DNA from: a virus
Taxonomy: Duplodnaviria > Caudoviricetes
DNA: 64,000 bases
Direction: 5' to 3' (one strand)
Virus record (IMG/VR): IMGVR_UViG_3300037400_003797
Location: 1 to 64,000 of that record
The translations under genes were made by a program, and so were the position numbers. Positions within the stretch are counted from its first letter, which is position 1. Each line of letters opens with the position of its first letter. Under the pieces are notes generated by a model. That model did not search any database and was not told the DNA's origin. It worked only from the letters and a program-made list of their open reading frames with translations. Positions 17,001 through 33,634 of this stretch are shown piece after piece.

Positions 17001-17015
17001 GGTGCAGAATCTTTA

Positions 17016-17045
17016 ATCTTAAAATCTGGGCGGCGTAATGCCGCC
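17016..17045 (+). promoter_or_regulatory. DGR cis element after VR1 (motif plus hairpin)
   Basis: ATCTTAAAATCT then GGCGGC-GTAAT-GCCGCC. Confidence 0.8.
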
Positions 17046-17100
17046 TTTATTTAGCAATAGAGAAAATACTAAGAATAAATATTTTAGGAGCATAAATAAT

Positions 17101-17613
17101 ATGTCGGTTGTTAAGAATAAGAGAAGTTTATCAAGACTTGAATTTTACAACACAGCAAGAAAATTAAGAATCGACCTTACGAATTGGCTTTTGCGTGATT
17201 TTGGAATCCGCGACAAAGTTTATAAATTTAAAAATGATGATGAACTAGAGAAAACTCTTTATGCAGAATATCCGAAATGGTTTATTGAAAGCACAAGAAA
17301 AACAATGCTGACTATATTAACAAATCTAATGATGAATATTACGGCAGCAAATTCTATCTACCCGATAAACATGACGGAAGTAGATTTAAGGCGTGGAATA
17401 CAGGATAAGGCAATCGCAAATTGCGAGCAGCTTTTACAGGAGCTTATTTACTGCGCTGATGTAATGCCTTTACAGATTTCAAAGCTAGAGCCTTATGCAG
17501 AAATGATAAACAAAGAAATTGCATTGCTGAAAGGCTGGCGAAAAACAACTAACGATATTGGTAAAAGGATAATGACAAAGAATCAAAAAAGTGATACTAT
17601 ATTTCGTACTTAA
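17101..17613 (+). CDS. avd: DGR accessory variability determinant (four-helix bundle)
   Basis: MSVVKNKR start, ANSIYP, LLKGWRK; sits between target gene and TR. Confidence 0.85.
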   Translation: MSVVKNKRSLSRLEFYNTARKLRIDLTNWLLRDFGIRDKVYKFKNDDELEKTLYAEYPKWFIESTRKTMLTILTNLMMNITAANSIYPINMTEVDLRRGIQDKAIANCEQLLQELIYCADVMPLQISKLEPYAEMINKEIALLKGWRKTTNDIGKRIMTKNQKSDTIFRT

Positions 17614-17652
17614 TACTAAAAATAAAAAGTAAAGAAAAATGGGAAACAATCT

Positions 17653-17761
17653 GATACGCCTAATGCGTCGAACTCCACCAACTTCTGCAATGTCAACAAC
17701 AATGGTAATAGCAACAACAACAATGCAAGTAATACTGATGGCGGCGTTGCGCCCGATTTCT
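17653..17761 (+). repeat. DGR template repeat TR
   Basis: Intergenic; 13 AAY triplets; matches VR1 and VR2 except almost only at adenines. Confidence 0.95.
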
Positions 17762-18016
17762 TACGGTGGTCATAAGTGTAGGCTTTTTAGCCGAGCCACC
17801 TTCTTAGAAAGGAGATTGTTTCCTTCCGTGAAAGAACGGTAAACGAGTATCTGACGAGTTCGGGCGGACGCTTCTTGCATGGCATGGGTTGTGTAGTAAT
17901 CCCTTGTTTCATGCCCGGAAACTCTAAGCGGCTTGGTGCTAAAACTACACACCGTTTACAGAAGAGTAGGCGGAAGCCGTGCAGATACATTTTTCTTTTT
18001 TTATTTGAAGGCAACT

Positions 18017-19264
18017 ATGACGAGCAAAGAAAGAAAAGAAGGGCGCAGATTAAGAAGAATCGAAAATCGACAGCGTAAAAAGGCTGATTTTCTTAAACAA
18101 TACAACGATTTTAATTTAGTTACTAATACAGATAATCTTTATCATGCTTTCAAGATGTCTAGGCGCGGTGTAAGCTGGAAAGAAAGCGTACAGCGTTACG
18201 AAAACGATGTCTTGCAGAATATAAACGATACAAAACAAAAACTTTTAAACGGCGAGAGCGTACAGAAAGGCTTTGTTGAATTCCAGATACACGAGCGGGG
18301 TAAAGTCCGCCATATCCGAAGCGTACATATTTCAGAAAGAATCGTACAAAAGTGTTTGTGTGACGAAATTCTTGTACCGATTATTACACGCTCTTTGATT
18401 TACGATAACGGCGCAAGTATAAAAAATAAGGGTATCAGCTTTGCAATGAATCGGTTACGGTGTCATTTGACAAAGTTTTACCGGGAAAATCATTCAAACA
18501 AAGGTTATGCGCTTGTAATTGATTTCTCAAAGTATTTTGACAATATTCTGCATGACAAACTCTTTGAAATGCAGAGAAGCAATCTGACAGACGAGCGGAT
18601 TTTCAATCTTTATAAGAGCTTTATTACTGTCTTTGGTGACGGTATTTCTTTAGGGCTTGGAAGTCAAGTTTCGCAGATTTCGGCTATCTCATATCCGAAC
18701 AAATTAGACCATTATTGCAAGGAAGTATTGAGAATCAAATATTATGGGCGTTATATGGACGATACATATTTGATTCACAGTGATAAAAAGTATCTTGAAT
18801 ATTGTCTTTCAGAGATAAAGAGAATCTGTGATGAATTGGGAATTAAGCTTAATCCGAAGAAAACGCGAATTGTGCCACTTGATGAAGGTTTCTGGTTCTT
18901 GAAGGGAAAATACATCTTGCTTGAATCCGGTAAAATCATTTGCAAGCCTGCTCGTGACGGTGCTTTGCGAATGAGAAGAAAATTAAGAAAGTTCCTCAAA
19001 ATGGTTGAAGAAGGTACGATGTCGCTTTCTGATGTTTACACTTCTTACCAATCATTCAGAAGCCATTTAATGCAGTTTGACAGCTACCACATCGTTCATA
19101 ACATGGATAAATACTATGCTAAACTGTTCGTACATAACTACAGCCTGCTTTATGATGAGCCGAGAATAACGCATAAGAACAGAATATTAAGCGAGCGCAA
19201 CAGGTGCATTGTACCTATCAGTCGTGTTTCAATAAAGAAAATGCCGCTTTTAGCCGGGGTATGA
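18017..19264 (+). CDS. DGR reverse transcriptase
   Basis: IDFSKYFD, LGLGSQVSQ and RYMDD motifs; about 415 aa; no maturase/endonuclease extension. Confidence 0.95.
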   Translation: MTSKERKEGRRLRRIENRQRKKADFLKQYNDFNLVTNTDNLYHAFKMSRRGVSWKESVQRYENDVLQNINDTKQKLLNGESVQKGFVEFQIHERGKVRHIRSVHISERIVQKCLCDEILVPIITRSLIYDNGASIKNKGISFAMNRLRCHLTKFYRENHSNKGYALVIDFSKYFDNILHDKLFEMQRSNLTDERIFNLYKSFITVFGDGISLGLGSQVSQISAISYPNKLDHYCKEVLRIKYYGRYMDDTYLIHSDKKYLEYCLSEIKRICDELGIKLNPKKTRIVPLDEGFWFLKGKYILLESGKIICKPARDGALRMRRKLRKFLKMVEEGTMSLSDVYTSYQSFRSHLMQFDSYHIVHNMDKYYAKLFVHNYSLLYDEPRITHKNRILSERNRCIVPISRVSIKKMPLLAGV

Positions 19265-19278
19265 GTTTAAGAAACTGA

Positions 19279-19385
19279 TTGATTTTTAGTCCTATATATC
19301 GTATAATTTACTATAAAAGGTATTTTGTAGCAACAAAAGCCGCTGGAATGACACTTGAACTGTCTTTCGGCGGCTTTTTTATTTC
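19279..19385 (+). promoter_or_regulatory. Promoter followed by an intrinsic terminator upstream of the lysis region
   Basis: TTGATT-17-TATAAT at 19279-19307; AAAAGCCGC...GCGGCTTTTTT hairpin. Confidence 0.55.
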
Positions 19386-19407
19386 TACAGGAAAAGGACT
19401 TAGGGCA

Positions 19408-20220
19408 ATGTTGGAATTCATATCTAAAAGTACACCGCTTAACCTCATTATCACAGGAATCTTTGTATTGTGCGCGATTTTAATAATCGTAAAGACAATC
19501 AAAGAGTTATCCGTGAAAGTTGGCGACAAGAGTGTTTCTTTTTCGAGCAAGAAAACGCAGTCGGAAATTGTAAAAGTCGTAACTGATTACGCAGATTTTA
19601 AGTACAAGATTAAGGAAGAGCAGGCGGAAGGTGTAAACGACCTGCATTTACAGGCAAAAAGAGTGGTGCAGGTGCAGATTGACCAATATGTAAAGAGAAT
19701 CACAGTTGATTACATGGGAGCGTTAAACAAGAGCGGGGCTGAAAATGCCGGGCTTACTATAAATATTTTCTCGCTTCTCATGCGGATTCTTTATAACGAA
19801 ATGTACAAATTCTGCATGGAGATATACGAAAGGAATCATCTTAAAGACAAGTCGGATTCTGAATTAAAAGAACTTGCAGAAACAAACTATCAGCGGCTTG
19901 CTGACATTTTCCGGGAATTCATGCAGACGAATTGGCTTGATGTAATGGGGGAGTACGAAGTCCTTCATAATATCTGTGTGGCAGAAATAAACTTTGTGCG
20001 GAATATTATGTATCAGATTCTTGCTTCTTTCCGGGATTTGAGCCGTCAAAAATACGAGCTTATCAATACTATCAATGACATAGATTGCAAGGTTAGGGAG
20101 AAAGTACAAAATAATGGCGTTCTTCCCACCAATGCAATCTCAATTCTTTCAGACCTTTACATTCCCGGAACAGGGCTTAACAAAAACAGCGTAGACAGGT
20201 GGCTATCCACAACAAAATAA
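19408..20220 (+). CDS. Membrane-anchored helical protein
   Basis: N-terminal hydrophobic helix; start at ATG 19408. Confidence 0.65.
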   Translation: MLEFISKSTPLNLIITGIFVLCAILIIVKTIKELSVKVGDKSVSFSSKKTQSEIVKVVTDYADFKYKIKEEQAEGVNDLHLQAKRVVQVQIDQYVKRITVDYMGALNKSGAENAGLTINIFSLLMRILYNEMYKFCMEIYERNHLKDKSDSELKELAETNYQRLADIFREFMQTNWLDVMGEYEVLHNICVAEINFVRNIMYQILASFRDLSRQKYELINTINDIDCKVREKVQNNGVLPTNAISILSDLYIPGTGLNKNSVDRWLSTTK

Positions 20221-20236
20221 AACAGGGGGCTAAAAA

Positions 20237-20545
20237 ATGATTGATTCACAGCTTATCTTGAAAATTTGTGTTGCAGCTTTTGCAACTGTAGGAATTGAAG
20301 AGTACATCAAGAACTTTCTGAAAACAGAAAAGACTAAAATCTATGCTCTTATTATGATTCCGCTTTCTCTCGGCTGCTTCTTCGCCATTGAGAAATTGCC
20401 TATCTGGGTTATAGGCGGACTTCTTACAGTCGGTTGTGTGCAGATTGCGTATCAGACAATCATACAGGGATTCAAGGCTGTTATTGACGGTCTTGTAGAT
20501 AAACTAAAGGGAATGGGAAAAGAAAACAATGACAGCCGCGATTAA
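20237..20545 (+). CDS. Putative holin
   Basis: 2-3 hydrophobic helices, charged C-terminus, lysis context. Confidence 0.55.
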   Translation: MIDSQLILKICVAAFATVGIEEYIKNFLKTEKTKIYALIMIPLSLGCFFAIEKLPIWVIGGLLTVGCVQIAYQTIIQGFKAVIDGLVDKLKGMGKENNDSRD

Positions 20546-20819
20546 ACTTCTTCTGATTGTTTGCGCCGTTTTTCTTTTTGCAGCTTTGATTTTCTTCTTT
20601 TTGTGGCGGCTCTCTGTTGGCAAGAGAAAGTCGCAGAAGGAAACGATTGACAAGCTCGTGCAGCAGATAAACGAAGCGAAACAGACGAATTCCGAATTGG
20701 AATACACGATTAGTGTTCTGAAAAAGAACAGGGAGAAAGCAAATGAAAAAATCAATGATGTGCATAATGGCGATGTTCTTGGCAATGCTCTTGATAGGTT
20801 GCACAAGCACAAAGGTTGA
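20529..20819 (+). CDS. Putative inner-membrane spanin (Rz-like)
   Basis: N-terminal TM helix plus coiled coil; overlaps a lipoprotein ORF. Confidence 0.65.
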   Translation: MTAAIKLLLIVCAVFLFAALIFFFLWRLSVGKRKSQKETIDKLVQQINEAKQTNSELEYTISVLKKNREKANEKINDVHNGDVLGNALDRLHKHKG

Positions 20820-21021
20820 GTACATCAAAAAGCCTTATTTGCCGGAATTAAACTTTCCATTTTTTCCCGAATTGTACGGCGATGTAAGAAACCCGGACGA
20901 CACAGTAACAGTGCCGGGGGATTGGATTATACAGATTACTGACTTCCAGATTTACTATGAGGAATTGGAAGATAACTACAACGACTTGAAAAAGAAGTAT
21001 GAGGGAGAGAGTGACAAATGA
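20743..21021 (+). CDS. Putative outer-membrane spanin lipoprotein (Rz1-like)
   Basis: Lipobox LLIGC, Pro-rich, overlapping in another frame. Confidence 0.65.
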   Translation: MKKSMMCIMAMFLAMLLIGCTSTKVEYIKKPYLPELNFPFFPELYGDVRNPDDTVTVPGDWIIQITDFQIYYEELEDNYNDLKKKYEGESDK

Positions 21022-21443
21022 GCATGACATTAACACAGTTCATAAACACATACAAGGGTACGAAAGTCGATTACAAAGACGAAAACTTCAAGGGTGACGG
21101 CTCTTTTCAGTGCGTGGACTTGGCGCGGCAGTATTACAAAGATGTTCTGAATGTTCCGCAGTTTCCGGCTCTCGGTGCTGACGGCGGGGCAAAGGACATT
21201 ATCAAGAATCCGGGCAGCAAGCTGAAAGTCATAAAAGAAGATTTGCTTGCTGATTATTCTGCAGGCGATGTCCTTGTCTGGGGAGCGAGCAAAACAAACA
21301 AATACGGTCATGTCGCTATTCTTGTGGCAATCTATAACACAAAGTATTTCATTGTTCTTGAACAGGACGGTTTCAAGCAGGACGGCGTAAAACTTGCTTT
21401 CAGAAGCCGTGAGAATCTTTTGGGCGGATTGTACAAGGCATAA
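21018..21443 (+). CDS. CHAP-domain endolysin
   Basis: QCVDL, YGHVAI and LEQDG motifs. Confidence 0.85.
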   Translation: MSMTLTQFINTYKGTKVDYKDENFKGDGSFQCVDLARQYYKDVLNVPQFPALGADGGAKDIIKNPGSKLKVIKEDLLADYSAGDVLVWGASKTNKYGHVAILVAIYNTKYFIVLEQDGFKQDGVKLAFRSRENLLGGLYKA

Positions 21444-21503
21444 AGGGAAAAAATGGGCGGTATGCTCATAAATATAAAATGCCTTTAAGGCAGGGGGTAA
21501 AAT

Positions 21504-21854
21504 ATGAAAAAGAATATTCTTCTTATTCTTGGTCTTATTTTCGTCATTGCGGGTGTTGCCGTTGCATACTTCGCAAAATTCGAGCTTGCTGATGTGACAG
21601 GTTTCGCAATCACAATGTTTGGTGCGGGTCTTGCTTCGGCTCAGTTGTGGCAGAAACGCGACACGACAAAAAAGACATGGCTTGCGCTGTTTGCCGTTGT
21701 TTTTGTCGGTCTGGGTGCGTTCCTTCTCGGCTTCGGTCAGTTCAGCAAGGAAACTATGGTCACAGTTATTTCTACCGTGTTTGGTCTTGTAGCGATTATC
21801 GGCGGTCTTATTGTTTCCGCAATACAGTCAAAGAACGCAAAGCAGATTGAATGA
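21504..21854 (+). CDS. Four-TM membrane protein (holin-like)
   Basis: Four hydrophobic segments. Confidence 0.6.
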   Translation: MKKNILLILGLIFVIAGVAVAYFAKFELADVTGFAITMFGAGLASAQLWQKRDTTKKTWLALFAVVFVGLGAFLLGFGQFSKETMVTVISTVFGLVAIIGGLIVSAIQSKNAKQIE

Positions 21855-21872
21855 TTATTTACTAAGGCTTGA

Positions 21873-21912
21873 AAAACCGCTCTCTTTTTGCAAGGGGGCG
21901 GTTTATCTGTTT
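21873..21912 (+). terminator. Hairpin/terminator after lysis genes
   Basis: AAACCGCTCTCTT...AAGGGGGCGGTTT. Confidence 0.55.
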
Positions 21913-21928
21913 TCTTTGAGGTGATTTT

Positions 21929-24370
21929 ATGGCGGATATTGGTATTAGCGTAGGCTTAGACACTTCTCAATTACAGCAGGGCGCAAAGGGTGCTGCTGAT
22001 TCTCTTGGTGAAATGTATGACAAAATGGCGGAGTTGCAGACCGCAGGGGAAAAGCGCAATGCCATTTATGAGTATATGGCTAATGCAAATAGTGCCATTA
22101 AGGAACTTCTAAGCAGTATTAACAATTTGAATGGTACACAGATACAGGGCGGACAGCCCGGAAATGTACCGAACGGAAATGATGATAAAAACGCTACTTC
22201 TTTTGCAAACCGTACAAGTAGGGTTACAGAAACTTTAAGAAACGCAAATATTGACCGCCTTAAAAGCCAAGTTGAGATTGTGAATGAAAAACTTGGTGAA
22301 ATGTATGACAAAATGGCGGGTATGAATTCGCTTACTGATTCACAAGATTATGCTTCTATGGCTGAAACCGTAGCAAGGTTGGAAGAAGTAAAACGCGGAT
22401 TAACAGGCGAAATAAACAGGCTTGAAAACGGAACAAACAGACAATCTCGTAATGGAAATGGAGCGTTTGGATTTTTACAGCGTTCTGTTGGTGGTGTTCC
22501 GGCAATTATAAATAATGTAGGAAATGGCAATTTAGCTTCTCTTGCCGTACAGGGCTTAACTTCGGGAGCGGGATTATTAAAGTCTGGAAGTGCAGCCGCC
22601 GCAGAAGGTGGAGCGGCTCTTGCAGGTTTAAGCCCGGCTTTGCTTGCTACAGGTGGTGTCGCTCTTATTGGTGCGCTCATAGCTGCAGGCGGTAACGCTA
22701 TGGCTAATCAGTGGGAAAAGAACTCCGAAGAAGCCGTAGATATGCAAGCTCTTTATGGTAGAAACATAGAAGGGAAAACAAAGCAGCAGAATAGCGAAGA
22801 ATTGAGAGAGTTATTCAATGCCGCTTCAACAAAAAACGAAAGAAACTTCACAGGATATACAACACAAGAATTCATGCAGCTTGCAAGCGGATTTTCAAGA
22901 TTTGGTATAAATAGTTCTTATTCCGCTATGAATAACGCCGCCGATGTTTTAAGTTGGCAGAGGTGGTCGGGTGCAGACCGTGGAGTATTGCAGAACTTTG
23001 TTGGAAATGCAATGCGTTATGGAGCTGCTGCAACGGCAAACAATGCTTTGAATCCGGCTTATGCAGCCCTCGAACAGTCGGGTATGCACAAAGGACAACT
23101 TAACGAAATGCTTTCTTCTATCCAGAGTGTGCTTGAAGAAGGTATTGCGAACGGCTTTGTAAAATCTACAGAAGAAATAGCAAATAATCTTTCTATGCTC
23201 TCAAAGTTGAGCGGAAACAATGTTTTGTGGCAAGGTCAGAATGGTGCGCAGCGACTTTCACAGATGAATTCTGCTCTTGCAAACAGTACATCGTTAGAAT
23301 CTGTTTCGGCTGTAATGAACTATCAAGCCGCAAATAACGCAAGAGGAAAAATGCTTGCTGAACTTTCTGACGAAAGAACAACGCCTCAGCGTAGAGCATA
23401 TATCAAAGACCAATTAAAGGGAATTGATACAGGCACTTATATAGATACAATGCTTCTCATGGAAAAGGGATTGTCGCCGGACATTCTTAAAGCACAGTTT
23501 GACGCTGTAGGCTCTATGGAAGGTAACAATACAGCAGGTGCTATTGAGCGATTCAGACAGATGTACAATCTTAACTATACAGGTGCAAAACAAGTTTATG
23601 ATATGTACGAAAAATCACGAAATGGTGAAGTTGATTGGAACGCTTTCTATAAAGCTGTAAACGGCATTACACAGAAAACTGAATATCAGTCGGAAGAAAC
23701 TTCATACAAAACCGCTGTAATAAACATCAAAGACCAGATTGCAAAAATGGGTCAAGATTTGTTCAGTATCCGTGAAAAAATCGTAGGTGTAGATTCAACA
23801 ACAAAGAAGGTTGAAGAAGCTAAAGAAAATGCCGCCGCTTATGCTCCTTCTGTTCCGGCTTTTGACCGAACATTTACAGAAACAGGCTCTTATAAGAACT
23901 ATAACCCGGTAAACGATAAATGGGAACAGCTTAAAAAAGCCGGGCTTGTTTTTGAAGCCGTAGAAGTAAAAGACATGAGCAGCCCAATGAGTAAAACCGA
24001 ATGGGCTAGTTCTGACGGCTGGGGTGGTGAAAGAACATTAGCGAATTACAAAGAAGCTCTTGAAAGTGGAGAAGCATATCATTCAAAGTTAGTTACAGGT
24101 GATGAAGCTAAAGGCTTCTTCTTTAATTCTGACGATATGGAGCAGGTAAGGCAGAAGGAAGCTGAATTCAGATTGCCAAATTCAGAAGGTGGAATAGACT
24201 TGTCAGAAAGGGAAAAATCTATTCTTAATTCAATGTTTGAAGAAATGTATAAAAAATACAATCCTAGTGCAGACAAAAAAACAATAGAAAGGTTCTTACA
24301 GATTATTTCAGAAAACACAAGTGCGCAGAATGACCAGCCGTTAGTTATAAATCTTACAATCCCGAACTAA
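21929..24370 (+). CDS. Tape-measure-like protein
   Basis: 813 aa, helical, Ala/Gly-rich hydrophobic middle segment. Confidence 0.6.
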   Translation: MADIGISVGLDTSQLQQGAKGAADSLGEMYDKMAELQTAGEKRNAIYEYMANANSAIKELLSSINNLNGTQIQGGQPGNVPNGNDDKNATSFANRTSRVTETLRNANIDRLKSQVEIVNEKLGEMYDKMAGMNSLTDSQDYASMAETVARLEEVKRGLTGEINRLENGTNRQSRNGNGAFGFLQRSVGGVPAIINNVGNGNLASLAVQGLTSGAGLLKSGSAAAAEGGAALAGLSPALLATGGVALIGALIAAGGNAMANQWEKNSEEAVDMQALYGRNIEGKTKQQNSEELRELFNAASTKNERNFTGYTTQEFMQLASGFSRFGINSSYSAMNNAADVLSWQRWSGADRGVLQNFVGNAMRYGAAATANNALNPAYAALEQSGMHKGQLNEMLSSIQSVLEEGIANGFVKSTEEIANNLSMLSKLSGNNVLWQGQNGAQRLSQMNSALANSTSLESVSAVMNYQAANNARGKMLAELSDERTTPQRRAYIKDQLKGIDTGTYIDTMLLMEKGLSPDILKAQFDAVGSMEGNNTAGAIERFRQMYNLNYTGAKQVYDMYEKSRNGEVDWNAFYKAVNGITQKTEYQSEETSYKTAVINIKDQIAKMGQDLFSIREKIVGVDSTTKKVEEAKENAAAYAPSVPAFDRTFTETGSYKNYNPVNDKWEQLKKAGLVFEAVEVKDMSSPMSKTEWASSDGWGGERTLANYKEALESGEAYHSKLVTGDEAKGFFFNSDDMEQVRQKEAEFRLPNSEGGIDLSEREKSILNSMFEEMYKKYNPSADKKTIERFLQIISENTSAQNDQPLVINLTIPN

Positions 24371-25050: not shown

Positions 25051-25180
25051 ATTCTCACCTCACAATTATATTATACACAAATTTGTGCAAATTCGCAAAT
25101 AAAAAAGGTGTTTACTACAGATTGTAATGATTGTGGCGGAAATTACTACAATATGATATAATTGTGTAAAGGAGTATGTT

Positions 25181-25378
25181 ATGACAAAGGCTGATTTTGA
25201 CAACTATATGAAATTCCGTAAGGCAGCAGAAGAAAACGCTGCAAAGATTGAGAAAATCTTGAATGAGAATGGTTATACAGTAGTAAGGGCTTACAATCCA
25301 GAAGTTATTAACGGCAAAGACGGCAAGCCCGAACTGATTACAAATCTTATTGTTTCACAGGAATTTCCGCTTGATTAG
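25181..25378 (+). CDS. Hypothetical protein
   Basis: AAGGAG RBS, 65 aa. Confidence 0.65.
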   Translation: MTKADFDNYMKFRKAAEENAAKIEKILNENGYTVVRAYNPEVINGKDGKPELITNLIVSQEFPLD

Positions 25379-25517
25379 CGGAGTTATCCTCGATTGTAAG
25401 TGACTTGCCACAAAAAGGGCAGGTGTTTTCCAGCTCGTTAGAGCGCGGCAAATGATATTCTCCCGGAGCTGTATCGCCAACAAGAGCCTTACAGGTGTCG
25501 CAATAACATCTCCATTG

Positions 25518-25814
25518 TCAATCGTTTTTCACTTTCTCGATAAAACTTTCAATATCTGTAAGAAGCGTGTCATACTTCTTTTTATAGATGTTTTTTTCTT
25601 TGCCTGTGATAAGGTACTCCACGGAAACATTAAGAAATTGGGCGATTTTTACAGTATCGAATACATCAGGGGCGATGTTTCTTGTGATTCTCCCCCGATG
25701 GGATTGTATATTCATACCGCAAGCGTTACACATTTCAGTTTGCGTAACACCTTTTTCTTTGCAGAGGTCTTTTATTCTGTCATAAACGGCGGCAATTTTT
25801 TCTTCTGTACTCAT
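25518..25814 (-). CDS. XRE-family HTH regulator
   Basis: RIKDLCKEKG...KIAQFLNVSVEYLITG. Confidence 0.85.
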   Translation of the reverse strand: MSTEEKIAAVYDRIKDLCKEKGVTQTEMCNACGMNIQSHRGRITRNIAPDVFDTVKIAQFLNVSVEYLITGKEKNIYKKKYDTLLTDIESFIEKVKND

Positions 25815-25866
25815 AATCGTATTACATATTTATTATCGTATGTTTGGCAATAAAAATCAAGTGAAA

Positions 25867-25959
25867 AATTGTAAAATTACAATTTTTAAAGATAATTTAT
25901 TGACAAAACTTGCAATTTTGCAATATAATAATGATTATAAATTGTATTACTACAATTTA
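25867..25959 (+). promoter_or_regulatory. Promoter with palindromic operator candidates
   Basis: TTGACA(25900)-18-TATAAT; AAATTGTA...TACAATTT inverted repeats at about 25867 and 25940. Confidence 0.6.
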
Positions 25960-26020
25960 AATAAAAAAAGCGGTAGAAACTCTGTCTGCAAACTGAATCT
26001 TCTACCGCAAGGAGTTGCGT

Positions 26021-26866
26021 ATGCAAAACCCAATTAAAGAATCGGCATTAGCCGATACAAGTTTAGCAGAGATTCAAGTTTTTGAAAACTCTGAATTTGG
26101 AAAAGTAAGGACAGTAAGAATTGACAATGAGACTTACTTTGTTGGTAAGGATATTGCAGAGATTCTTGGATTTTCCAATTCAAGAAAAGCGATTGCTGAC
26201 CATGTTGATGATGAAGATAAGGGGGTAACGAATTGTTACACCCCCGGCGGAAAGCAAAATGTAACAATCATCAACGAAAGCGGCTTGTATTCGCTCATTC
26301 TTGGCTCAAAGCTGGAATCCGCAAAGAAATTCAAGCATTGGGTAACAAGTGAAGTCTTGCCGTCAATCAGAAAGACAGGCGGCTACAATGTACCGAAAAC
26401 TTATGCGGAAGCCTTGCAGATTGCGGCAAATCAAGCAAAGCAGATTGAGGAAAAGAACAGGCAGATAGCGCAGATGAAGCCGTCCGCCGATTCTTGGGAA
26501 ACTTACGCCGGGGATATGAAGCAGCGAAGCAAGGAAAAATCTTTCCGTGATGTTGCGAAGCTCTTGGGGCTTACGCCGCAGAAAGCACTTATCAAATGGT
26601 TCTTTGATAACGGCTATATCATGCGTGGCGGTGACGGTTGGACGGCAACCCAGAGGGGAATAGAAAGCGGAATGTTGGTAAATCGCATTATCACGGCGCA
26701 GAACGGACACGCCGGGGAACAATGCAAGGTTACGACATTTGGCATGATGAAGCTCTCCTACTTGAAGGGGGAGGGAACTTTTGACAACTGCATAGCGCAG
26801 GAAAGGACTTTCGGCGAGCGCAGAAAGCCGAGGAATTACCACAGAAAGTCCATTCTGACGGACTAA
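26021..26866 (+). CDS. Phage antirepressor (BRO-N plus ANT/KilA-C-like)
   Basis: FENSEFGKVR, INESGLYSL, VLPSIRKTGGY. Confidence 0.9.
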   Translation: MQNPIKESALADTSLAEIQVFENSEFGKVRTVRIDNETYFVGKDIAEILGFSNSRKAIADHVDDEDKGVTNCYTPGGKQNVTIINESGLYSLILGSKLESAKKFKHWVTSEVLPSIRKTGGYNVPKTYAEALQIAANQAKQIEEKNRQIAQMKPSADSWETYAGDMKQRSKEKSFRDVAKLLGLTPQKALIKWFFDNGYIMRGGDGWTATQRGIESGMLVNRIITAQNGHAGEQCKVTTFGMMKLSYLKGEGTFDNCIAQERTFGERRKPRNYHRKSILTD

Positions 26867-26907
26867 AAGAACAACCCAACGATACATTTTTAAGAGGAGA
26901 TAACGAT

Positions 26908-27180
26908 ATGACTATAGGCGAAATTTACGGAACGGCACTAAAAGTGCAGAATCTTTCCAACGAAGAATGGGATGCGTTCAATTCATTTTTTGACGAGCGC
27001 GATGTAATCAACAACGACATGAAGAAGGAAAACCCGGCTTTGTTCAATGCCCTTTGCCGAATGAAGGAAAATCAAGCGAAGATTGAAACGATTGACGCTC
27101 TTTTCTGCTCATGCGACGGTAAATTTGAGGACAGGACTGTTTCAACAAGTCGGGAACTTGCGATAGCAAGCAATTTTTAA
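26908..27180 (+). CDS. Hypothetical protein
   Basis: GAGGAG RBS, 90 aa. Confidence 0.65.
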   Translation: MTIGEIYGTALKVQNLSNEEWDAFNSFFDERDVINNDMKKENPALFNALCRMKENQAKIETIDALFCSCDGKFEDRTVSTSRELAIASNF

Positions 27181-27210
27181 ACTTTGTAAAAGAGAAGAGG
27201 TCGTGAGAAA

Positions 27211-27474
27211 TCACGACTTCTTCTTCTCAAAGAATTCCTGCACTCTTGCCGTTGCGTTTTCTTGAATTTTGTTCATTGCTTCAAGAGCGTCTTTCTTTGA
27301 AGTTTTGCCGAAAACGCCGATTATAAGCCGGGCGTAAATATCGGTGAAAAGAAAGGCAATGCTTCCGGCTGTACCTTTTGCGAAGTTCTTTTCAATCTTG
27401 CCGTCTTTTACTTTGATTTCAATTTCCGTTTCCTGTACACGGTTAATAAAGTCTTTTACATCAGTCTGTTTCAT
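27211..27474 (-). CDS. Hypothetical protein
   Basis: GGGAG RBS, 87 aa. Confidence 0.65.
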   Translation of the reverse strand: MKQTDVKDFINRVQETEIEIKVKDGKIEKNFAKGTAGSIAFLFTDIYARLIIGVFGKTSKKDALEAMNKIQENATARVQEFFEKKKS

Positions 27475-27489
27475 CTTTATATCTCCCTT

Positions 27490-27609
27490 TTAATATTCCC
27501 AATCGTTTTCCTGTTCAATCCCGCTGATTTCTTCTATGATTGCTCCGATAACGGCAATCGTTATGAACAAGCAGAGAATGACACCGATAAGAATTCCTAC
27601 AAATCTCAT
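27490..27609 (-). CDS. Small single-TM peptide (39 aa, not in ORF track)
   Basis: MRFVGILIGVILCLFITIAV...; GGAGG RBS. Confidence 0.5.
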   Translation of the reverse strand: MRFVGILIGVILCLFITIAVIGAIIEEISGIEQENDWEY

Positions 27610-27611
27610 TT

Positions 27612-28358
27612 CTATTCTGCCTCCTCAAAAAGTGATTGCATTTTAATCTGTTTGTTTTCTTCGATAAGTTCTGATTCATCGAAAAGAGAAGGACAAAAAC
27701 CGCCCTCGCTTTTAAGCCGTTCAATGGCTGGAATGAAGTATTTTCCCCGAAGCTCACAGCCTAAGAAATGCCTGCTTTCATTTCCCGCAACTAAAAGCGT
27801 TGAGCCACTTCCGGCACATGGGTCAAAGACTGTCTGATTAGGTCGTGAATTTTCTATGATAAGCTGCCTTAATAAGTCGTGATTCTTTTCTGTCGGGTGT
27901 AGTTTTCCTGTTCCTTGTGGATATGTAAGCACGGAAGGAATACAGAAGCCGCCAAAATATGCGCCGGGCTTTTTAGTCCATACGGCGTTTTCTACTGAAT
28001 TAAGGTATTCTTTTTCGCCGTTCATTACGCTGGGATTTGTCTTAGCCCATACTAAATGCCGGGTAGGGTATTTTTTTTTCTTAAAGTATGTGAAGATTTG
28101 CGCAAGCTGTTCTATTCCGCAGAATATGACGATTGAGCCTTTTGTTACTTTGTCAACGAGCGGCAAAAACTCTGACAGCTCGAATGTCTTTGTGTCTGCA
28201 TCGCCTTTATCCAGATTCCTTCTATCCATGCCGTTATGTCCGATATTGGTATTAACTTCGCAATATGGTATGTCGGTAAGGGTGAGGTCTACGGAATTCT
28301 TAGGCATATTCTTCATGTATTCTATGCAGTCGCAATGTATGAGCGTGTCAAAGTCCAT
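27612..28358 (-). CDS. N4-C/N6-A DNA methyltransferase (beta class)
   Basis: TDIPY precedes HPTEK and FDPCAGSG. Confidence 0.9.
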   Translation of the reverse strand: MDFDTLIHCDCIEYMKNMPKNSVDLTLTDIPYCEVNTNIGHNGMDRRNLDKGDADTKTFELSEFLPLVDKVTKGSIVIFCGIEQLAQIFTYFKKKKYPTRHLVWAKTNPSVMNGEKEYLNSVENAVWTKKPGAYFGGFCIPSVLTYPQGTGKLHPTEKNHDLLRQLIIENSRPNQTVFDPCAGSGSTLLVAGNESRHFLGCELRGKYFIPAIERLKSEGGFCPSLFDESELIEENKQIKMQSLFEEAE

Positions 28359-28374
28359 TTTGTTTTAGTTCCTT

Positions 28375-29153
28375 CTATTTCTCGTCCAAAAAATCAAATA
28401 GCGTAGGCTGCAAGTGCTGATTCTTCCCGATTACGAAATCACAAATCCAATTTCTAGCGTAATCCGGGTGTATCATTGACCTTTCGCCTCCACATAGTCC
28501 GTTTCCTTTACTTCTTGCGCAGTCGTTTATTACCTTTTGCTTTTTGTCATTCTGATAGCTCCAACCGTGCGTAGGTTCACAGTTTATAAACCAATACGCC
28601 GTAGGCTTTTTGAATACATCACCGCGCTCCATTCTGTTTTTATCTATGAATGTAGGCGGCAAGAAGTTCTGACCAGAAATCAAGTAATTCGGTATAGTTG
28701 CCGGATTCTCGATTATCAGCCGTATTTTCTTTTGGTCGCAGATTGCAACGAACTTATAAAGCAATTCGTGAAATCGCGTCCGTTTTTCAAGCCTGTCAAG
28801 TGCGTATTCGATACGCTCTGTAAGGCTTTTATTAAGTGTTCCGTTCCGCATAAGCGCAAAATCAAGCTGCTGGATTGTTTCAAAGTAAATGCACGGAAAG
28901 AACGCAATAACAAGGTCTTGACAGGAAGAAATAGAATCGAACAAACTTGTCTTGTCTTGTCTTGTCTTGTCTTGTCTTGTCTTAGGGCTTCATACGCCTT
29001 ATCAATTTCAGCGAACAAATCTATTACATGGTCTGTTTCGCCGAATTCGTTTTGTATGTCATAATCCTCTGCTTGAAATCCGAGCTTGCGGAATTCATTC
29101 TTGAATGTTCCGCTTTGCTCGAAAAAGCAATGTACTTTACCTGTAATTTCCAT
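28375..29153 (-). pseudogene. C5-cytosine-methyltransferase-like gene frameshifted at a pentanucleotide repeat
   Basis: FFEQSG in the 5' frame; FFPC, IENP and KKPT in the 3' frame; junction at (CTTGT)7. Confidence 0.75.
28946..28983 (+). repeat. Simple sequence repeat (CTTGT)7 CTT
   Basis: Directly visible perfect tandem repeat. Confidence 0.97.
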
Positions 29154-29155
29154 TG

Positions 29156-30298
29156 CTATTTACTTCCTTTTACATGAACATCAAGAAGCAGATAGCCCTT
29201 GTATGATGATTTTTCGTAAACAAAGCCGTTTGATTCCATTGCAGAGCGGAAATCTTTCATCTGCTGCATTGTGGCTCTCATAAGGATAGGCTCGGAAGCA
29301 ATTCCGCATTGTTTAGCGAGTGTTGCAATAGGCATTGTCACATAGAAGTCAAAGAGTTTTTCTATCGGCTGTTTTGGCTGTTCCGGCTGAACTTCTGTTA
29401 CTTCGTGTGTGCTGAAATCAACATTATAGGTCGGGGCATTTTCTCCGAGTATTTCTTTTTCCTGTTCTACTATCTTTGCCATAGCGTTAGGAGCTTCCGC
29501 CCACTGTTTGTTACGCTCTTCTTCCGCTTTTCTTTCGGCTTCAAGCTGGGCTTTGCGTTCTTCTTCTTCCTGCAGGCGTTTTCTGTTCTCCCGGAGTTCA
29601 GCACCACGGCGCAAGGTTGCCTGTAAATCAAGTGTGGTAAGATACAATTCTTTGAGTGTCGCGGTGTCCTCTCCGAACTGTTCAATGCTCTGTAAGTCGC
29701 CTGTGATACGGTCAATGATATGTGCAATATCATCATGAATCTGTTTTGTTTTGTAGGTTTTGTTAAGCCATTTATCGTTGAAGATTCTTTCAAGCGGAAC
29801 AAGATTGAAGTCGTACACTTTCCAGATGTCGGCAATTTCGGCGCGTTTTGCTTCTTTCTCTCTTCGCTCTTCTTCCTTAACAACGCCGTCAAGCTGAATT
29901 GTGCAGCTTTTGACAAGGTTTACTGATTCGCTTACAAGGTCTTTGAATCCGTTGAAGGGCTGCATCCATTCCTTTTCATAGGCGATACGAGCGTCATTCA
30001 TCTGTTTTGCGAGAGTGTTTAATTTTGCCTTGCGGTCGGCGGCTTTTTTCGGGTTTCCGATATATTCTTCGATTGAGAAGTTATCTGTAAGGGCTTTGAT
30101 TGAATCCCTAATAATCCTTGCGTTTGTTGTCAGAGTTCCGATTTTCATATCGGCAACGAAATTCAATGATTCAATCGGCAAGATTGCGATTTCGTTCTTT
30201 GGCTCTTCTGCCGTAAGTTCTGGCTGAACTACAGTTTCTTTTTCCTGTTCTGTCTGATTCTCTGGAACAAGTACATTCTTTTTTGTTGTTCTAGGCAT
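29156..30298 (-). CDS. DUF1351-like phage protein
   Basis: KAKLN...YEKEWMQPF...IFNDKWLNKT, coiled-coil. Confidence 0.75.
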   Translation of the reverse strand: MPRTTKKNVLVPENQTEQEKETVVQPELTAEEPKNEIAILPIESLNFVADMKIGTLTTNARIIRDSIKALTDNFSIEEYIGNPKKAADRKAKLNTLAKQMNDARIAYEKEWMQPFNGFKDLVSESVNLVKSCTIQLDGVVKEEERREKEAKRAEIADIWKVYDFNLVPLERIFNDKWLNKTYKTKQIHDDIAHIIDRITGDLQSIEQFGEDTATLKELYLTTLDLQATLRRGAELRENRKRLQEEEERKAQLEAERKAEEERNKQWAEAPNAMAKIVEQEKEILGENAPTYNVDFSTHEVTEVQPEQPKQPIEKLFDFYVTMPIATLAKQCGIASEPILMRATMQQMKDFRSAMESNGFVYEKSSYKGYLLLDVHVKGSK

Positions 30299-30314
30299 TG
30301 TGTTTTTCTCCTCT

Positions 30315-30424
30315 AAAAAAAAGAAAGCCGTCTGTATTCTTGCCTCTACAGACGGCTTAAAATGTCGCTTTCACGACACACCGCATAAAGCGGTTTAGAA
30401 AAGGCAAGATATTTTCTAAACCGT
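30315..30424 (-). promoter_or_regulatory. Paired-loop attenuator leader B
   Basis: UCUUGCCU in upstream hairpin versus AGGCAAGA in terminator loop; TTGACA-18-TATGAT at 30463-30492. Confidence 0.7.
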
Positions 30425-30601
30425 TCTATTTACGAATTGCTTTATTAAGCAATTCTAAAGCAATCATATTGCTAAATAGCGTAATTTGTCAATAAGAAAA
30501 TTATGTAATTAAGCAATTTTTAGTTTGATTCTATGTGATTTTCGTATATTTACTATGTTTCCGGGCAATAAAAAAGGCTTGCGATGAAGCAAGCCCTGTT
30601 T

Positions 30602-30910
30602 TCAGTCGTAATATAAAGGCGTATCGTATGATACGCGCAATGTTTTGTTTCTGATTCCTTCGGCGAATTGCGCAAGTCGTTTCTTTCCGTACTCGATTGT
30701 TCCGCCGCTCTGGTAATTGTGTCCGTTCAGAAAAAGCCGCATAAATCCACGGTTCGGAAGTTCTGGAATATCAATCAGAAAGATATAATTTTTACCGATT
30801 CTGATTTCTTCAATCAGCTCATAGCGTTCAAGCTCTTTCTTGTCGTGACAAAGCGGGTAAGCGATTTTCTGCCATTCTTCCCATTTGCCATAGTTGCGGT
30901 TCAGCTTCAT
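30602..30910 (-). CDS. Hypothetical protein
   Basis: MKLNRNYG..., GGAGG RBS; hairpin at about 30570-30600 downstream. Confidence 0.65.
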   Translation of the reverse strand: MKLNRNYGKWEEWQKIAYPLCHDKKELERYELIEEIRIGKNYIFLIDIPELPNRGFMRLFLNGHNYQSGGTIEYGKKRLAQFAEGIRNKTLRVSYDTPLYYD

Positions 30911-30911
30911 G

Positions 30912-31085
30912 TTATGCCTCCGGGAATTCAACCTTTACGACTTTGTGCATATCGTCAGATACGACACCAAGATTAAACCAATTACCCATGTAATATCTAG
31001 CGATACCCTCGCGTCCTACGGCTGCATTGTAATCTGTTGTCATTGTTTCGCCGTTATCGAATGTCACTCTTACTGTGTCTAACAT
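30912..31085 (-). CDS. Small hypothetical protein (57 aa, not in ORF track)
   Basis: MLDTVRVTFDNG...; AGGAG RBS. Confidence 0.6.
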   Translation of the reverse strand: MLDTVRVTFDNGETMTTDYNAAVGREGIARYYMGNWFNLGVVSDDMHKVVKVEFPEA

Positions 31086-31086
31086 A

Positions 31087-31242
31087 TTACGCTCCTATTT
31101 CTGAATAAAAAATCTGGGCAAGGAATTCACCGTTTTTGTAAACATGAAAATCCGTGTGATGAAAAAAGACATTCAGATTCTTTCCAAATTCCTTTTCGCA
31201 GAAACCCAAGACTTTGTTTTTTCTTGATTCTGTAAGTTTCAT
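31087..31242 (-). CDS. Small hypothetical protein (51 aa, not in ORF track)
   Basis: MKLTESRKNK...; AAGGAG RBS. Confidence 0.55.
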   Translation of the reverse strand: MKLTESRKNKVLGFCEKEFGKNLNVFFHHTDFHVYKNGEFLAQIFYSEIGA

Positions 31243-31405
31243 AAGCCACTCCTTGCAAGGTCTGAATCACCCTACATTTATAATATACACTAATATTTTA
31301 TATCTGTCAATTAAAAATGTATATCATAGGTGTAAAAAGTTCAATAATTATGAAATAAATTAAATTATAGTTGCTAAAAATAAAATTATGGTGTATATAT
31401 GAAGT

Positions 31406-31624
31406 ATGGATATTGTAGAATACATCAAGCTGTGTTGCGTGAAAAAAAATGACATTTCTCTTAGGCAGATTGCCTTAAACGCTGGAATATCACCGCAGAA
31501 TCTAAGCAATAAAATTGCAAAAGGTTCTTTCTATCTCCGTGATATTGAAAAAATTGCAGCCGCATTAAATGCGGATTTGGAAATCAAGTTTATTGACCGG
31601 GAAACAGGAAAGGCGATTATATGA
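31406..31624 (+). CDS. XRE/Cro-like HTH regulator
   Basis: SLRQIALNAGISPQNLSNK...EKIAAAL. Confidence 0.8.
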   Translation: MDIVEYIKLCCVKKNDISLRQIALNAGISPQNLSNKIAKGSFYLRDIEKIAAALNADLEIKFIDRETGKAII

Positions 31625-31935
31625 GCGATTTTGATTTCAGTAAGGTTACTTGTGACAATATAAAGTTTATTCCTCAAAAATCACAGTCTATAAAAGACCT
31701 TGAAAAAGAGTACGAAAAGCAGAGTAAATACATCTTAGATAAAATAAATGAAAAATACTCCAACTCTATTATGTCTGACAGAATCAAGCTGCAAAGGCGA
31801 CAGGAACTTATGGGGTTAAAAAGAATGTTTCTTGACCCGATTTCAGAAAGAATCACGCAGCTTGCAAAAGTTGAAGTAAATACTGCAATGATTCAGATTA
31901 GTGTTGATATAGATTTACCAATCTCCGCGACATAA
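31621..31935 (+). CDS. Hypothetical protein
   Basis: Coupled to upstream HTH gene. Confidence 0.6.
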   Translation: MSDFDFSKVTCDNIKFIPQKSQSIKDLEKEYEKQSKYILDKINEKYSNSIMSDRIKLQRRQELMGLKRMFLDPISERITQLAKVEVNTAMIQISVDIDLPISAT

Positions 31936-32202
31936 ATCTATAACATAAGAAGTGTGCTTAGATTCGTCTGTGTGCCAGCCTTGAACTAGGATGCAAATTA
32001 CTTTATCTTCATAAAAAAATACACGCCTAGAGCCTTGATTGTTTTCAAGCGGATAAACATAACATTTTCCATTCTGCTTCAAATCATATTCAGTCAGATT
32101 CTTTTTTATCATGTACTCTCTGATAATATTATCAATCTTTCTAAATGCAAATTGCAGCCGTTTTGAGATTGTATCTTGAATATGTTTTTCAAACTCTGTC
32201 AT
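31915..32202 (-). CDS. Hypothetical protein
   Basis: 95 aa ORF. Confidence 0.6.
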   Translation of the reverse strand: MTEFEKHIQDTISKRLQFAFRKIDNIIREYMIKKNLTEYDLKQNGKCYVYPLENNQGSRRVFFYEDKVICILVQGWHTDESKHTSYVIDLCRGDW

Positions 32203-32548
32203 AAGATTGTTTGTCCTCTAGGTCGCTGTAATAAAAGATTATTTCCTTTCCTTTTGCCTGTGCATAGTGCCATTCTCTGATTGCGCCTTTTGAATTGCGC
32301 CAATCTGGAAGCATGAAGAGAGCGTCACAGCAATCTATAAGCGCGAAGTCGATATGTAAAAATTGCTCGTATGAAAAAAAATCATACTCGCCGATTTTGC
32401 AGGGATTTATGACTTTAAAGCCTTTTTCTGTAAGTATTCTTTCGGCTTCGGCAAACTTTTTTACATAGTTTTCATCACCTGTAATTTTCCCGCTGATGTA
32501 GATAATTTTATTCAATTTCATCTTCCTTGTTTTCGTTTTCACGGTCAA
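32189..32548 (-). CDS. DUF4406-like protein
   Basis: IYISGKITG, VINP, CDALFMLPDWRNSKGA. Confidence 0.8.
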   Translation of the reverse strand: MTVKTKTRKMKLNKIIYISGKITGDENYVKKFAEAERILTEKGFKVINPCKIGEYDFFSYEQFLHIDFALIDCCDALFMLPDWRNSKGAIREWHYAQAKGKEIIFYYSDLEDKQSYDRV

Positions 32549-32624
32549 ACAGATTCAAATATACGGCACTTGCGGCTAGTCCGCCGATTAAGATAACAAG
32601 CACAATAGATATAACGATTTCCAT
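32508..32624 (-). CDS. Small single-TM peptide (38 aa, not in ORF track)
   Basis: MEIVISIVLVILIGGLAASAV... Confidence 0.5.
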   Translation of the reverse strand: MEIVISIVLVILIGGLAASAVYLNLFDRENENKEDEIE

Positions 32625-32627
32625 AGC

Positions 32628-32783
32628 TTAATCCTTGCAAAGCGCGTCTGAAATAAACATTCCGGCAATGTTAAGGCAAATCAGCAGGAATACTTCTAAA
32701 GCCCTGTTGTTTATATTCATCTGTACAAATTCAATGGCAAAACAACCGAATATATAACCGACTGTGAACTTTTTAATTTTCAT
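32628..32783 (-). CDS. Small membrane protein (51 aa, not in ORF track)
   Basis: MKIKKFTVGYIFG...; GGGAG RBS. Confidence 0.5.
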   Translation of the reverse strand: MKIKKFTVGYIFGCFAIEFVQMNINNRALEVFLLICLNIAGMFISDALCKD

Positions 32784-32801
32784 GCGTCACGCTCCCTTTC
32801 T

Positions 32802-32831
32802 TCCCGGCATTACGCCGGGAGATTTCAAGAT
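32802..32831 (-). promoter_or_regulatory. DGR cis element after VR2 (motif plus hairpin)
   Basis: Minus strand ATCTTGAAATC then TCCCGGC-GTAAT-GCCGGGA. Confidence 0.8.
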
Positions 32832-32837
32832 ATGAGT

Positions 32838-33632: not shown

Positions 33633-33634
33633 GT

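Follow-up and report, generated by a model that had tools for sequence, protein, structure and literature searches.

The 64,000 nucleotides (nt) of viral DNA analysed here, positions 1 to 64,000 of IMG/VR record IMGVR_UViG_3300037400_003797 (hereafter the window, part of an 80,496-bp virus genome rated complete), carry one diversity-generating retroelement (DGR). Each of its two variable repeats (VR1 and VR2) is followed by a conserved 12-nt motif adjoining a GC-rich hairpin with a GTAAT loop, and the template repeat (TR) is not. This combination of sequence and hairpin is very probably a selected element tied to VR flanks, and it probably marks the site at which mutated copies are pasted in, a recognition role suggested by its conservation, position and strand. 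The finding stands, and it reaches further than the original prediction, made from the letters of the window, had it: the element is present after the VRs of many DGRs whose reverse transcriptases (RTs) are 34–98% identical.

The element after both variable repeats

VR1 (16883–16989, plus strand) is 82% identical to the TR, and VR2 (32862–32966, minus strand), at the 3′ end of the remote target gene 2, is 77% complementary to it. The original prediction of one motif and one GTAAT-loop GC hairpin after both VRs is borne out in coordinates and letters. After VR1 the motif reads ATCTTAAAATCT (17016–17027, plus strand) and contains two ATCT units, the second of which adjoins the GC stem; after VR2 it reads ATCTTGAAATCT (32820–32831, minus strand, read from 32831 to 32820). 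The motif 5′ of the distal hairpin can also be written as ATCTTNAAATCT. The distal hairpin of VR1, (G)GGCGGC-GTAAT-GCCGCC(T), occupies 17028–17046 on the plus strand (GGCGGC 17029–17034, GTAAT 17035–17039, GCCGCC 17040–17045) and is held by six Watson-Crick pairs and one G-T pair, whereas that of VR2, TCCCGGC-GTAAT-GCCGGGA, at 32802–32820 on the minus strand (TCCCGGC 32820–32814, GTAAT 32813–32809, GCCGGGA 32808–32802), has seven Watson-Crick pairs. As predicted, the outer stems differ yet stay paired, through two compensatory swaps of G-C for C-G. The spacing of 27–30 nt between repeat and motif that had been proposed is correct at its upper end, 30 nt for VR2, but not for VR1, where the motif lies 26 nt after the end of TR homology. 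Counted from the end of TR homology, the distal stem itself begins after 38 nt at VR1 and 41 nt at VR2, and after 13–43 nt in relatives.

Both flanks fold more stably than their shuffled counterparts (z = −3.7 for VR1 and −4.5 for VR2; 0 of 200 shuffles are as good). The exact 12-mer occurs at two places only in the window, which holds two further matches with one mismatch each, and the 13-nt hairpin core CGGCGTAATGCCG is found exactly at these two VR flanks only. When motif and hairpin are combined into one pattern and up to two mismatches are allowed, the 80,496-bp genome yields two matches, both after a VR, and the reversed control pattern yields none. The claim that no such element follows the TR holds equally well: alignment and direct reading of the TR flank reveal no motif or hairpin of this kind, and neither of the two covariance models described below (R1 and R2) has a match near 17.76–17.9 kb. 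A search of Rfam with the VR1 flank returned no family at E<=1.

Restriction to variable-repeat flanks

Related loci were gathered by RT search as four close IMG/VR loci, 80 further IMG/VR loci (RTs 44–71% identical) and 80 loci from GTDB genomes (RTs 34–98% identical); distant members carry the unchecked MAG (metagenome-assembled genome) labels Spirochaetaceae, Lachnospiraceae, Prevotella, Bacteroides, Desulfovibrio, Selenomonadaceae and Nanosyncoccus, among others. A script that detects repeat pairs with adenine-biased mismatches delivered 62 distinct VR flanks from the IMG/VR set and 59 from the GTDB set. A strict GC hairpin, defined by a stem of at least 7 bp, a GC content of at least 70% and a loop of 4–6 nt within 60–70 nt after the repeat, is present on 39/62 and 44/59 of these flanks, respectively, on 0/54 and 0/56 of the corresponding TR flanks, and in 55 of 3000 random windows of the IMG/VR loci. 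False TR/VR pairs (L027, L028 and one L139 row) and a reciprocal L200 row were removed. For the cluster counts given below, L049 was excluded as having no GC hairpin; L154, L159, L163, L164, L013, L056 and L113, in which the finder located no hairpin, stand outside the 29 IMG/VR clusters, and seven GTDB flanks without a hairpin stand outside the 16 GTDB clusters.

Covariation supports the hairpin as a conserved structure. Alignment A3 comprises 25 hand-picked rows; for A4, the 34 flanks combining a 5-nt loop with a stem of 6 bp or longer were taken from a non-redundant set of 47, with L137a, L137b and L151 mis-registered by MAFFT and counting against pairing; and A5 omits the window, L007, L023, L025, L048, L137a, L137b and L151. 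Across the 34 flanks with 5-nt loops all seven stem pairs vary on both sides, and the covariation score is 0.831 versus 0.202 in shuffles, none of 500 shuffles reaching the observed value.

Covariance model R1 matches the VR1 flank of this phage at E 6.1e-4 and the VR2 flank at E 1.2e-4. In the 80 IMG/VR loci (717,573 bases) it has 48 matches at E<=0.05, all on the strand of the RT gene and all ∼0.85–1.1 kb upstream of it, just upstream of avd. In the 80 GTDB loci, none of which was used in building R1, together with the rest of this genome (721,449 bases), it has 51 matches, 50 at VR flanks and one antisense of one; the last 16.6 kb of this genome contain no match. Over the 1.4 Mb of related loci, 98 of 99 matches are thus at VR flanks and the remainder is antisense of one. 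Three genomes of 3.1–3.4 Mb with near-identical prophages give two matches each, at the VR1 and VR2 flanks, and no other at E<=1, with 150/177 and 150/164 first-look candidates scored in two of the three. The original prediction had proposed that a scan for motif plus hairpin would uncover further targets; none appeared beyond the flanks of VR1 and VR2 in the phage genome and these three prophage-bearing genomes.

Model R2 was built from 25 flanks of DGRs with RTs ∼60% identical or less, this phage and its 70%-identity clade being excluded. Its best match in the window is the VR2 flank (E 6.6e-4), with the VR1 flank in second place (E 0.016); the next match is the VR2 hairpin antisense (E 0.62), and all others are above E 3. 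The consensus of R2 is AucUUaaaAUC followed by the stem and CUUGU.

Conservation of the motif

The 12-mer is the local form of a wider consensus, ATCTT-n(1–2)-AATC, adjoining a GC stem of 7–8 bp with a 5-nt loop that is mostly YTTRT. Loss of the motif at homologous DGR targets would have refuted the original prediction, but it is retained there, reading ATCTTCAAATCT in L168 and L175 and ATCTTGAAATCT in L170; L179 and L182, with RTs at 56% identity, also have ATCTTGAAATCT. Apart from a GTC variant in L169, the 12-mer of close relatives is invariant outside position 6, which may be A, C or G, and the bases just upstream of the 12-mer vary.

A MAFFT alignment of 25 hand-picked flanks gives the pre-stem consensus ATCTTnnAATCT, in which the T of the last ATC is invariant, and when flanks are anchored on the loop this ATC ends 7–8 nt before it in most rows. 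An ATC stands at the 5′ stem edge in 19/29 IMG/VR clusters, as compared with 8 on the antisense strand and 4.05 +/- 1.9 in shuffles (maximum 11 in 2000), and in 10/16 GTDB clusters, as compared with 5 antisense and 1.92 +/- 1.31 in shuffles (maximum 8). In 41 distinct GTDB model matches the four columns before the stem are A in 31, A in 32, T in 38 and C in 39, and the loop is Y-T-T-R-T. The second, stem-adjoining ATCT-like unit of the 12-mer is the widely conserved one.

Diversifying repeats and near-fixed flanks

The proposal that both VRs are maintained targets is supported by comparison with close relatives. VR1 has 21, 21 and 23 differences from three relatives, of which 21, 21 and 19 fall at TR adenines, and VR2 has 21 and 26 differences from two relatives, of which 19 and 19 do so; L175 and L249 were left out of this ungapped comparison for their inflated counts, probably due to an indel. 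The 75-nt 3′ flanks of the VRs have 0–3 differences from relatives, except in L170 (RT 85% identical), where 3 of the first 57 positions differ and then 13 of the 18 just past the hairpin, indicating that conservation reaches to the 3′ end of the distal hairpin and no further. Public contig X2 has at least 21 differences within VR1 (16868–16966) and none at 16967–17053 among the 38 of 39 differences listed. Both repeats diversify at TR adenines next to flanks that are near fixed.

The loop sequence follows lineage. GTAAT is the loop at both targets in four genomes of this phage's clade, whereas in four genomes of the 70% clade the VR1-type loop is TTTAC in all four and the VR2-type loop is TTTAT in three and TTTAC in one; GTAAT is lineage-specific and not kept across the larger clade. 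This clade and the 70% clade have both the VR1-type stem (GGCGGC) and the VR2-type stem (CCCGGC) in common, which indicates that the two targets split before the clades did. The agreement of loops within a genome fits a loop that is read by a factor changing with the lineage; alternatively, it may come from short gene conversion between the two flanks. Loci L023, L025 and L076 have VR1-type flanks with a GTAAT loop, and a pattern search of their records recovered the VR only, with no TR or second VR; these records are 20–70% complete and therefore have no bearing on within-genome agreement. IMG/VR locus L137 contains a DGR with two targets ∼4.9 kb apart, both with the element, whose loops TAGAC and TAGAT occur nowhere else in the set; its two flanks are nearly identical overall and hence may stem from a recent duplication.

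The end of the repeat and a proximal hairpin

Each VR ends in a sequence resembling the initiation of mutagenic homing (IMH) site, a 21-mer that is the same in VR1 (GGCGGCGTTGCGCCCGCTTTC, 16968–16988, plus strand) and VR2 (32862–32882, minus strand) and has one difference from the TR, at a TR adenine; the TR (17655–17761, plus strand) ends in ...CCCGATTTC. In L249 (G005:C50) the ortholog of VR2 has the A of the TR (CCCGATTTC) at this sole position where IMH and IMH* of the window differ, so that information transfer seems to reach within 5 nt of the end of homology. Since the one difference lies at an adenine, and the L249 repeat has the base of the TR there, donor and recipient repeats of this phage differ essentially only downstream of the repeat.

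There the original prediction had missed a second, proximal hairpin, which is seated on the stop codon, the order after each VR being IMH, proximal hairpin, motif and distal GC hairpin. At VR1 the DNA fold TTCTGTACCT-GCTA-AGGTGCAGAA (16986–17009, plus strand) has a 10-pair stem that overlaps the end of TR homology by 4 nt, and the stop codon TAA (16998–17000) covers loop and first base of the 3′ arm; the hairpin is perfect in relatives, as AGGTACAG. At VR2 the fold GAGTTTACCGCT-GAT-AGCG(A)GTAAACTC (32834–32861, minus strand) has 12 pairs and follows the end of homology directly, with the stop codon TAA (32840–32838) inside its 3′ arm, and three related genomes have the same sequence. The two proximal hairpins have no common sequence, yet both fold; neither stem is GC-rich, and the loops are GCTA and GAT. 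Covarying stems at the same place are present in 35/119 VR flanks versus 1/106 TR flanks, a count in which a few short matches are probably spurious, with variants such as GTGTGGC/GCCACAC, GTGTTGC/GCAACAC, GTGTCGC/GCGACAC and TGGTAGGTTAGC/GCTAACCTACCA. The proximal hairpin is a subclade feature.

In the VR flanks of L176 and L187 the proximal arms (TGTGTTGC/GCAACAC and GTGTGGC/GCCACAC) are kept despite insertions of ∼35–40 nt in the loop. In L049 the flank of a VR2-type repeat end stops within the proximal hairpin, without motif and GC hairpin, and this locus may be a decayed or recombined target; L085, on the same IMG/VR contig, has the complete element. A further hairpin, GCCGC-GTAA-GCGGC (GAA loop in L158), is conserved ∼40–60 nt beyond the first GC hairpin in L089, L112, L116, L139, L143, L145, L147 and L158, with an A/T run behind it; its appearance suggests a terminator or else a hairpin of GNRA type, nearer to the pattern of phage BPP-1 discussed below.

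An exact scan of IMG/VR for the 21-nt IMH gave no match. A degenerate 17-mer of the IMH was usable, but most of the 76 stretches it retrieved are chance matches in unrelated GC-rich DNA. A contig family comprising L017, L019, L031, L041, L046, L054, L057, L062, L069, L074 and L080 has the 17-mer in common, and in its printed flanks the ∼70 nt past the 17-mer are without GC hairpin or motif; these contigs may represent a different type of DGR target, or contain no VR at all.

Alternative explanations

Hairpins at the ends of genes may act in the transcript, and the strongest of the alternatives is that these are intrinsic terminators or stabilisers of 3′ ends, found after VRs only since VRs end genes. 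Both hairpins of VR1 are flagged as terminator-like, with T-rich tails, the hairpins lie at or right after stop codons, and the likeness of such structures to terminator stem-loops was remarked by Guo et al. (PMC3240598). The VR2 flank, however, has no terminator-like site: its distal hairpin is followed directly, without a T-run, by the ribosome-binding site and start codon of the next open reading frame (ORF). The hairpin is kept and the T-run lost in L170, and most homologous flanks have no T-run. Moreover, the model matches are confined to VR flanks in 1.4 Mb of loci and three genomes, which must hold many ordinary terminators, and terminators are not characterised by a conserved motif 5′ of their stem. 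Terminator evidence after the IMH has been reported in a minority of DGRs only (Wu et al., PMC5758913). A purely transcriptional explanation is on balance improbable.

Slightly less probable still is a regulatory site, whether promoter, operator or translation control, for the gene downstream, which in the cassette would be the avd-TR-RT transcript. The cassette element is indeed always 50–100 nt upstream of avd, and A/T-rich hexamers (TATAAT, TAAAAT) occur in many flanks. Nevertheless, the element also follows remote VRs with unrelated genes downstream (VR2 of the window and the equivalent repeats of the 70% clade, as well as the second L137 target), a consensus scan finds no promoter-like site overlapping either motif, and an ATC placed invariably against a covarying stem does not resemble a promoter.

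The notion that the likeness is a functionless leftover of an old duplication of the 3′ end of a target gene with its flank, which would account for the same domain family and the same IMH-like 21-mer at the ends of both targets, is very hard to sustain, given that the stretches from IMH to motif cannot be aligned and yet both fold into a hairpin, that motif and stem geometry are kept across RTs 34–98% identical, that the stems covary, and that conservation falls away abruptly once the 3′ end of the hairpin is passed.

Proposed role and relation to known targets

With these alternatives weighed, the element is likely to act in DGR target recognition or homing efficiency. Both sites would be cis-acting recipient marks of one phage DGR: at each VR the IMH-like 21-mer is followed by a stop-codon hairpin, the motif ATCTT-N-AAATCT and a GC hairpin of 6–7 bp with a GTAAT loop, and the TR, which has the 21-mer save for one adenine position, offers none of the three downstream parts. 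The module would then be this clade's form of “IMH plus downstream inverted repeat”, telling the DGR which repeat is the recipient. On single-stranded or supercoiled DNA the hairpins may fold and so keep the VR accessible at its 3′ end to the adenine-mutagenised cDNA. A sequence-specific contact for the particle of RT, Avd and RNA, or for a host protein, could be provided by the motif with its ATC, at the base of the GC stem on the 5′ side, and probably by the loop. Whether the motif itself is a recognition determinant is, on the sequences considered here, an even proposition.

How DGR cDNA finds and enters its target has been described as “still mysterious” (PMC12875486). The published DGR target hairpin has a GC stem of 7–10 bp and a 4-nt GRNA loop and lies 4–34 bp from the VR (PMC3240598, PMC6602519); in Bordetella phage BPP-1 the structure of the stem rather than its sequence, together with the sequence of the loop, is needed for efficient homing (PMC3240598). 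The element described here agrees with the BPP-1 target (Guo 2011, PMC3240598) in that the VR, but not the TR, has an inverted repeat shortly downstream of it, in that the stem varies in sequence with pairing kept, in that the stop codon lies in the hairpin region (here in the proximal hairpin), and, as would follow for this phage if its proposed role is correct, in marking the recipient repeat. Unlike BPP-1, which has one hairpin, this phage has two, and a conserved ATCTT-n-AATC motif adjoins the 5′ side of the stem.

Similar comparisons can be drawn with other systems. The GC-rich inverted repeats catalogued by DGR surveys and MyDGR likewise lie downstream of the IMH of the target gene (PMC5758913, PMC6602519), and high-confidence repeats were reported in 127/372 DGRs (Wu 2018, PMC5758913). 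The hairpins of Nanoarchaeota DGRs, with constrained GRA loops (PMC4372165), are also a lineage-specific, sequence-constrained variant lying partly in coding sequence, but their loop is of a different family and the accessible text describes no flanking motif. Group IIC introns at terminator stem-loops (PMC3240598) resemble the present case, in which membership is not claimed, in their recognition of a DNA stem-loop by its structure and a short adjacent sequence; they insert by reverse splicing, whereas here cDNA would replace a homologous repeat.

Several observations weigh against the proposed role. The loop has 5 nt (GTAAT; mostly YTTRT in the clade) instead of the 4-nt GRNA loop of BPP-1, the distal stem lies 38–41 nt past the end of homology instead of within 4–34 bp, and it has 6–7 pairs as compared with the published 7–10 bp; because loop and distance depart from the published hairpin, the element is classed as a variant outside that pattern. 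In BPP-1, too, homing does not strictly depend on the stem-loop, important though it is (PMC12875486). About 30 of the 80 loci in each set have no R1 match at E<=0.05, some of these loci being incomplete. The motif is not universal: ATC is missing at the stem edge in 10/29 and 6/16 clusters, L169 has GTC in place of the second ATC, and the VR1-type flank of the 70% clade has TAATAA before the stem. Part of the signal may be stem and not a separate motif, since in several loci AGAT on the other side of the stem pairs with ATCT. Stem pairing in the 34 flanks is 93.7%, dropping to 40–51% when the 3′ partner is slid, but the rows were picked by the hairpin finder and the figure is thus partly due to construction; this selection does not account for the diversity of stems found at a single homologous site. 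Finally, relatedness among the sequences is corrected only crudely by single-linkage clusters. Taking these points together with the evidence above, it seems likely that this clade has its own form of the known DGR target hairpin, to which a sequence determinant has been added.

More tentatively, and with the odds rather against it, ATCTT-n-AATC and the loop of the adjoining GC hairpin might be read together, as a bipartite address, by a trans-acting factor specific to the lineage, candidates for which would be the particle of RT, Avd and RT-2 RNA, or a host nickase or primase acting on folded single-stranded DNA. If this were so, the address and not the IMH would decide which repeats are recipients in this large DGR clade, whose records are labelled Spirochaetes, Firmicutes, Bacteroidota, Desulfovibrio and Saccharibacteria; the parallel change of loops (GTAAT/GTAAT versus TTTAC/TTTAY) would reflect co-evolution with the factor, remote targets would be predictable, and these DGRs could be retargeted. 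Pairing of motif or loop with the TR-proximal spacer RNA was considered and dropped after inspection by eye gave only 4–6-nt matches and no consistent covariation.

The software and surveys that define the target hairpin by the BPP-1 pattern miss this clade, and by the MyDGR criteria (7–10-bp GC stem, GRNA loop, 4–34 bp) the present element would be passed over. The accessible parts of PMC3240598, PMC5758913, PMC6602519, PMC4372165 and PMC12875486 describe no flanking motif, YTTRT loop class or two-hairpin layout of this kind. No paper on these features was found by title or abstract, in a search that lay outside subscription journals and survey supplements, where a prior description is possible; the supplements of PMC5758913 may list some members of this clade. 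The three-part signature of motif, 7–8-bp GC stem and 5-nt loop, which in 160 related loci and three genomes is confined to VR flanks, can be used to find remote targets, to distinguish live from decayed targets and to design mutational tests of target choice, and DGRs of gut and rumen might with its help be portable to new targets.

The DGR cassette and its genomic setting

The DGR consists of a target-avd-TR-RT cassette at 14.9–19.3 kb on the plus strand and a remote target at 32.8–33.6 kb on the minus strand, identified as such by an RT beside the TR, adenine-biased TR/VR pairs, an Avd-type gene and a structured spacer RNA. Mismatches to the TR fall at TR adenines in 19/19 cases for VR1 and 22/25 for VR2, and the whole genome has no TR-like repeats other than TR, VR1 and VR2. 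Target gene 1 (14910–17000, plus strand) is an ORF of 696 amino acids (aa) with a variable C-terminal domain, matched by Pfam DUF6273 at residues 542–694 (E 5.6e-9); its middle part has PHROG matches to virion structural, head-decoration and tail-fiber families. The avd-like accessory gene (17101–17613, plus strand, 170 aa) has a moderate match to the PHROG family “Avd protein of DGR” (E 2.3e-7), and its product has no Pfam match above the cut-off and none in NCBIfam. The RT gene (17933–19264, plus strand, 443 aa) matches Pfam RVT_1 (E 1.5e-14) and the PHROG reverse transcriptase family (E 1.5e-77). It starts 172 nt after the end of the TR, and the structured spacer is an RT-2 RNA (Rfam RF03077; 17764–18000, plus strand) with 98.5 bits against a gathering score of 40 (E 2.7e-23), in a match that stops at the end of the searched stretch; this DGR clade may be definable by RT-2 RNA. 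Target gene 2 (32838–33632, minus strand) is an ORF of 264 aa that also ends in DUF6273 (Pfam, E 9.9e-9).

The host is likely Treponema. Three loci have RTs 98% identical to that of this phage, all in rumen- or gut-derived MAGs; two, one of them on a 156,854-bp contig, are labelled Treponema, from which the likely host follows, and one, on a 3-kb contig, is labelled Clostridia bacterium, these names being MAG labels as recorded and unchecked. A megablast search of 14–20 kb of the window against a phage collection gave no match.

A preference of DGRs for targets co-directional with replication has been reported. VR2 lies within a block of minus-strand genes (27000–34000 of the window) with slightly negative GC skew, the rest of the genome being plus-strand with positive skew, so that VR1 and VR2 are oppositely oriented, which bears on this preference; the skew tracks gene orientation only and is hence uninformative on the direction of replication relative to the two opposed VRs. 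A few hundred bases downstream of target gene 2, at 32189–32548 on the minus strand, lies a gene resembling DUF4406 and nucleoside 2-deoxyribosyltransferases (E 8.6e-24).

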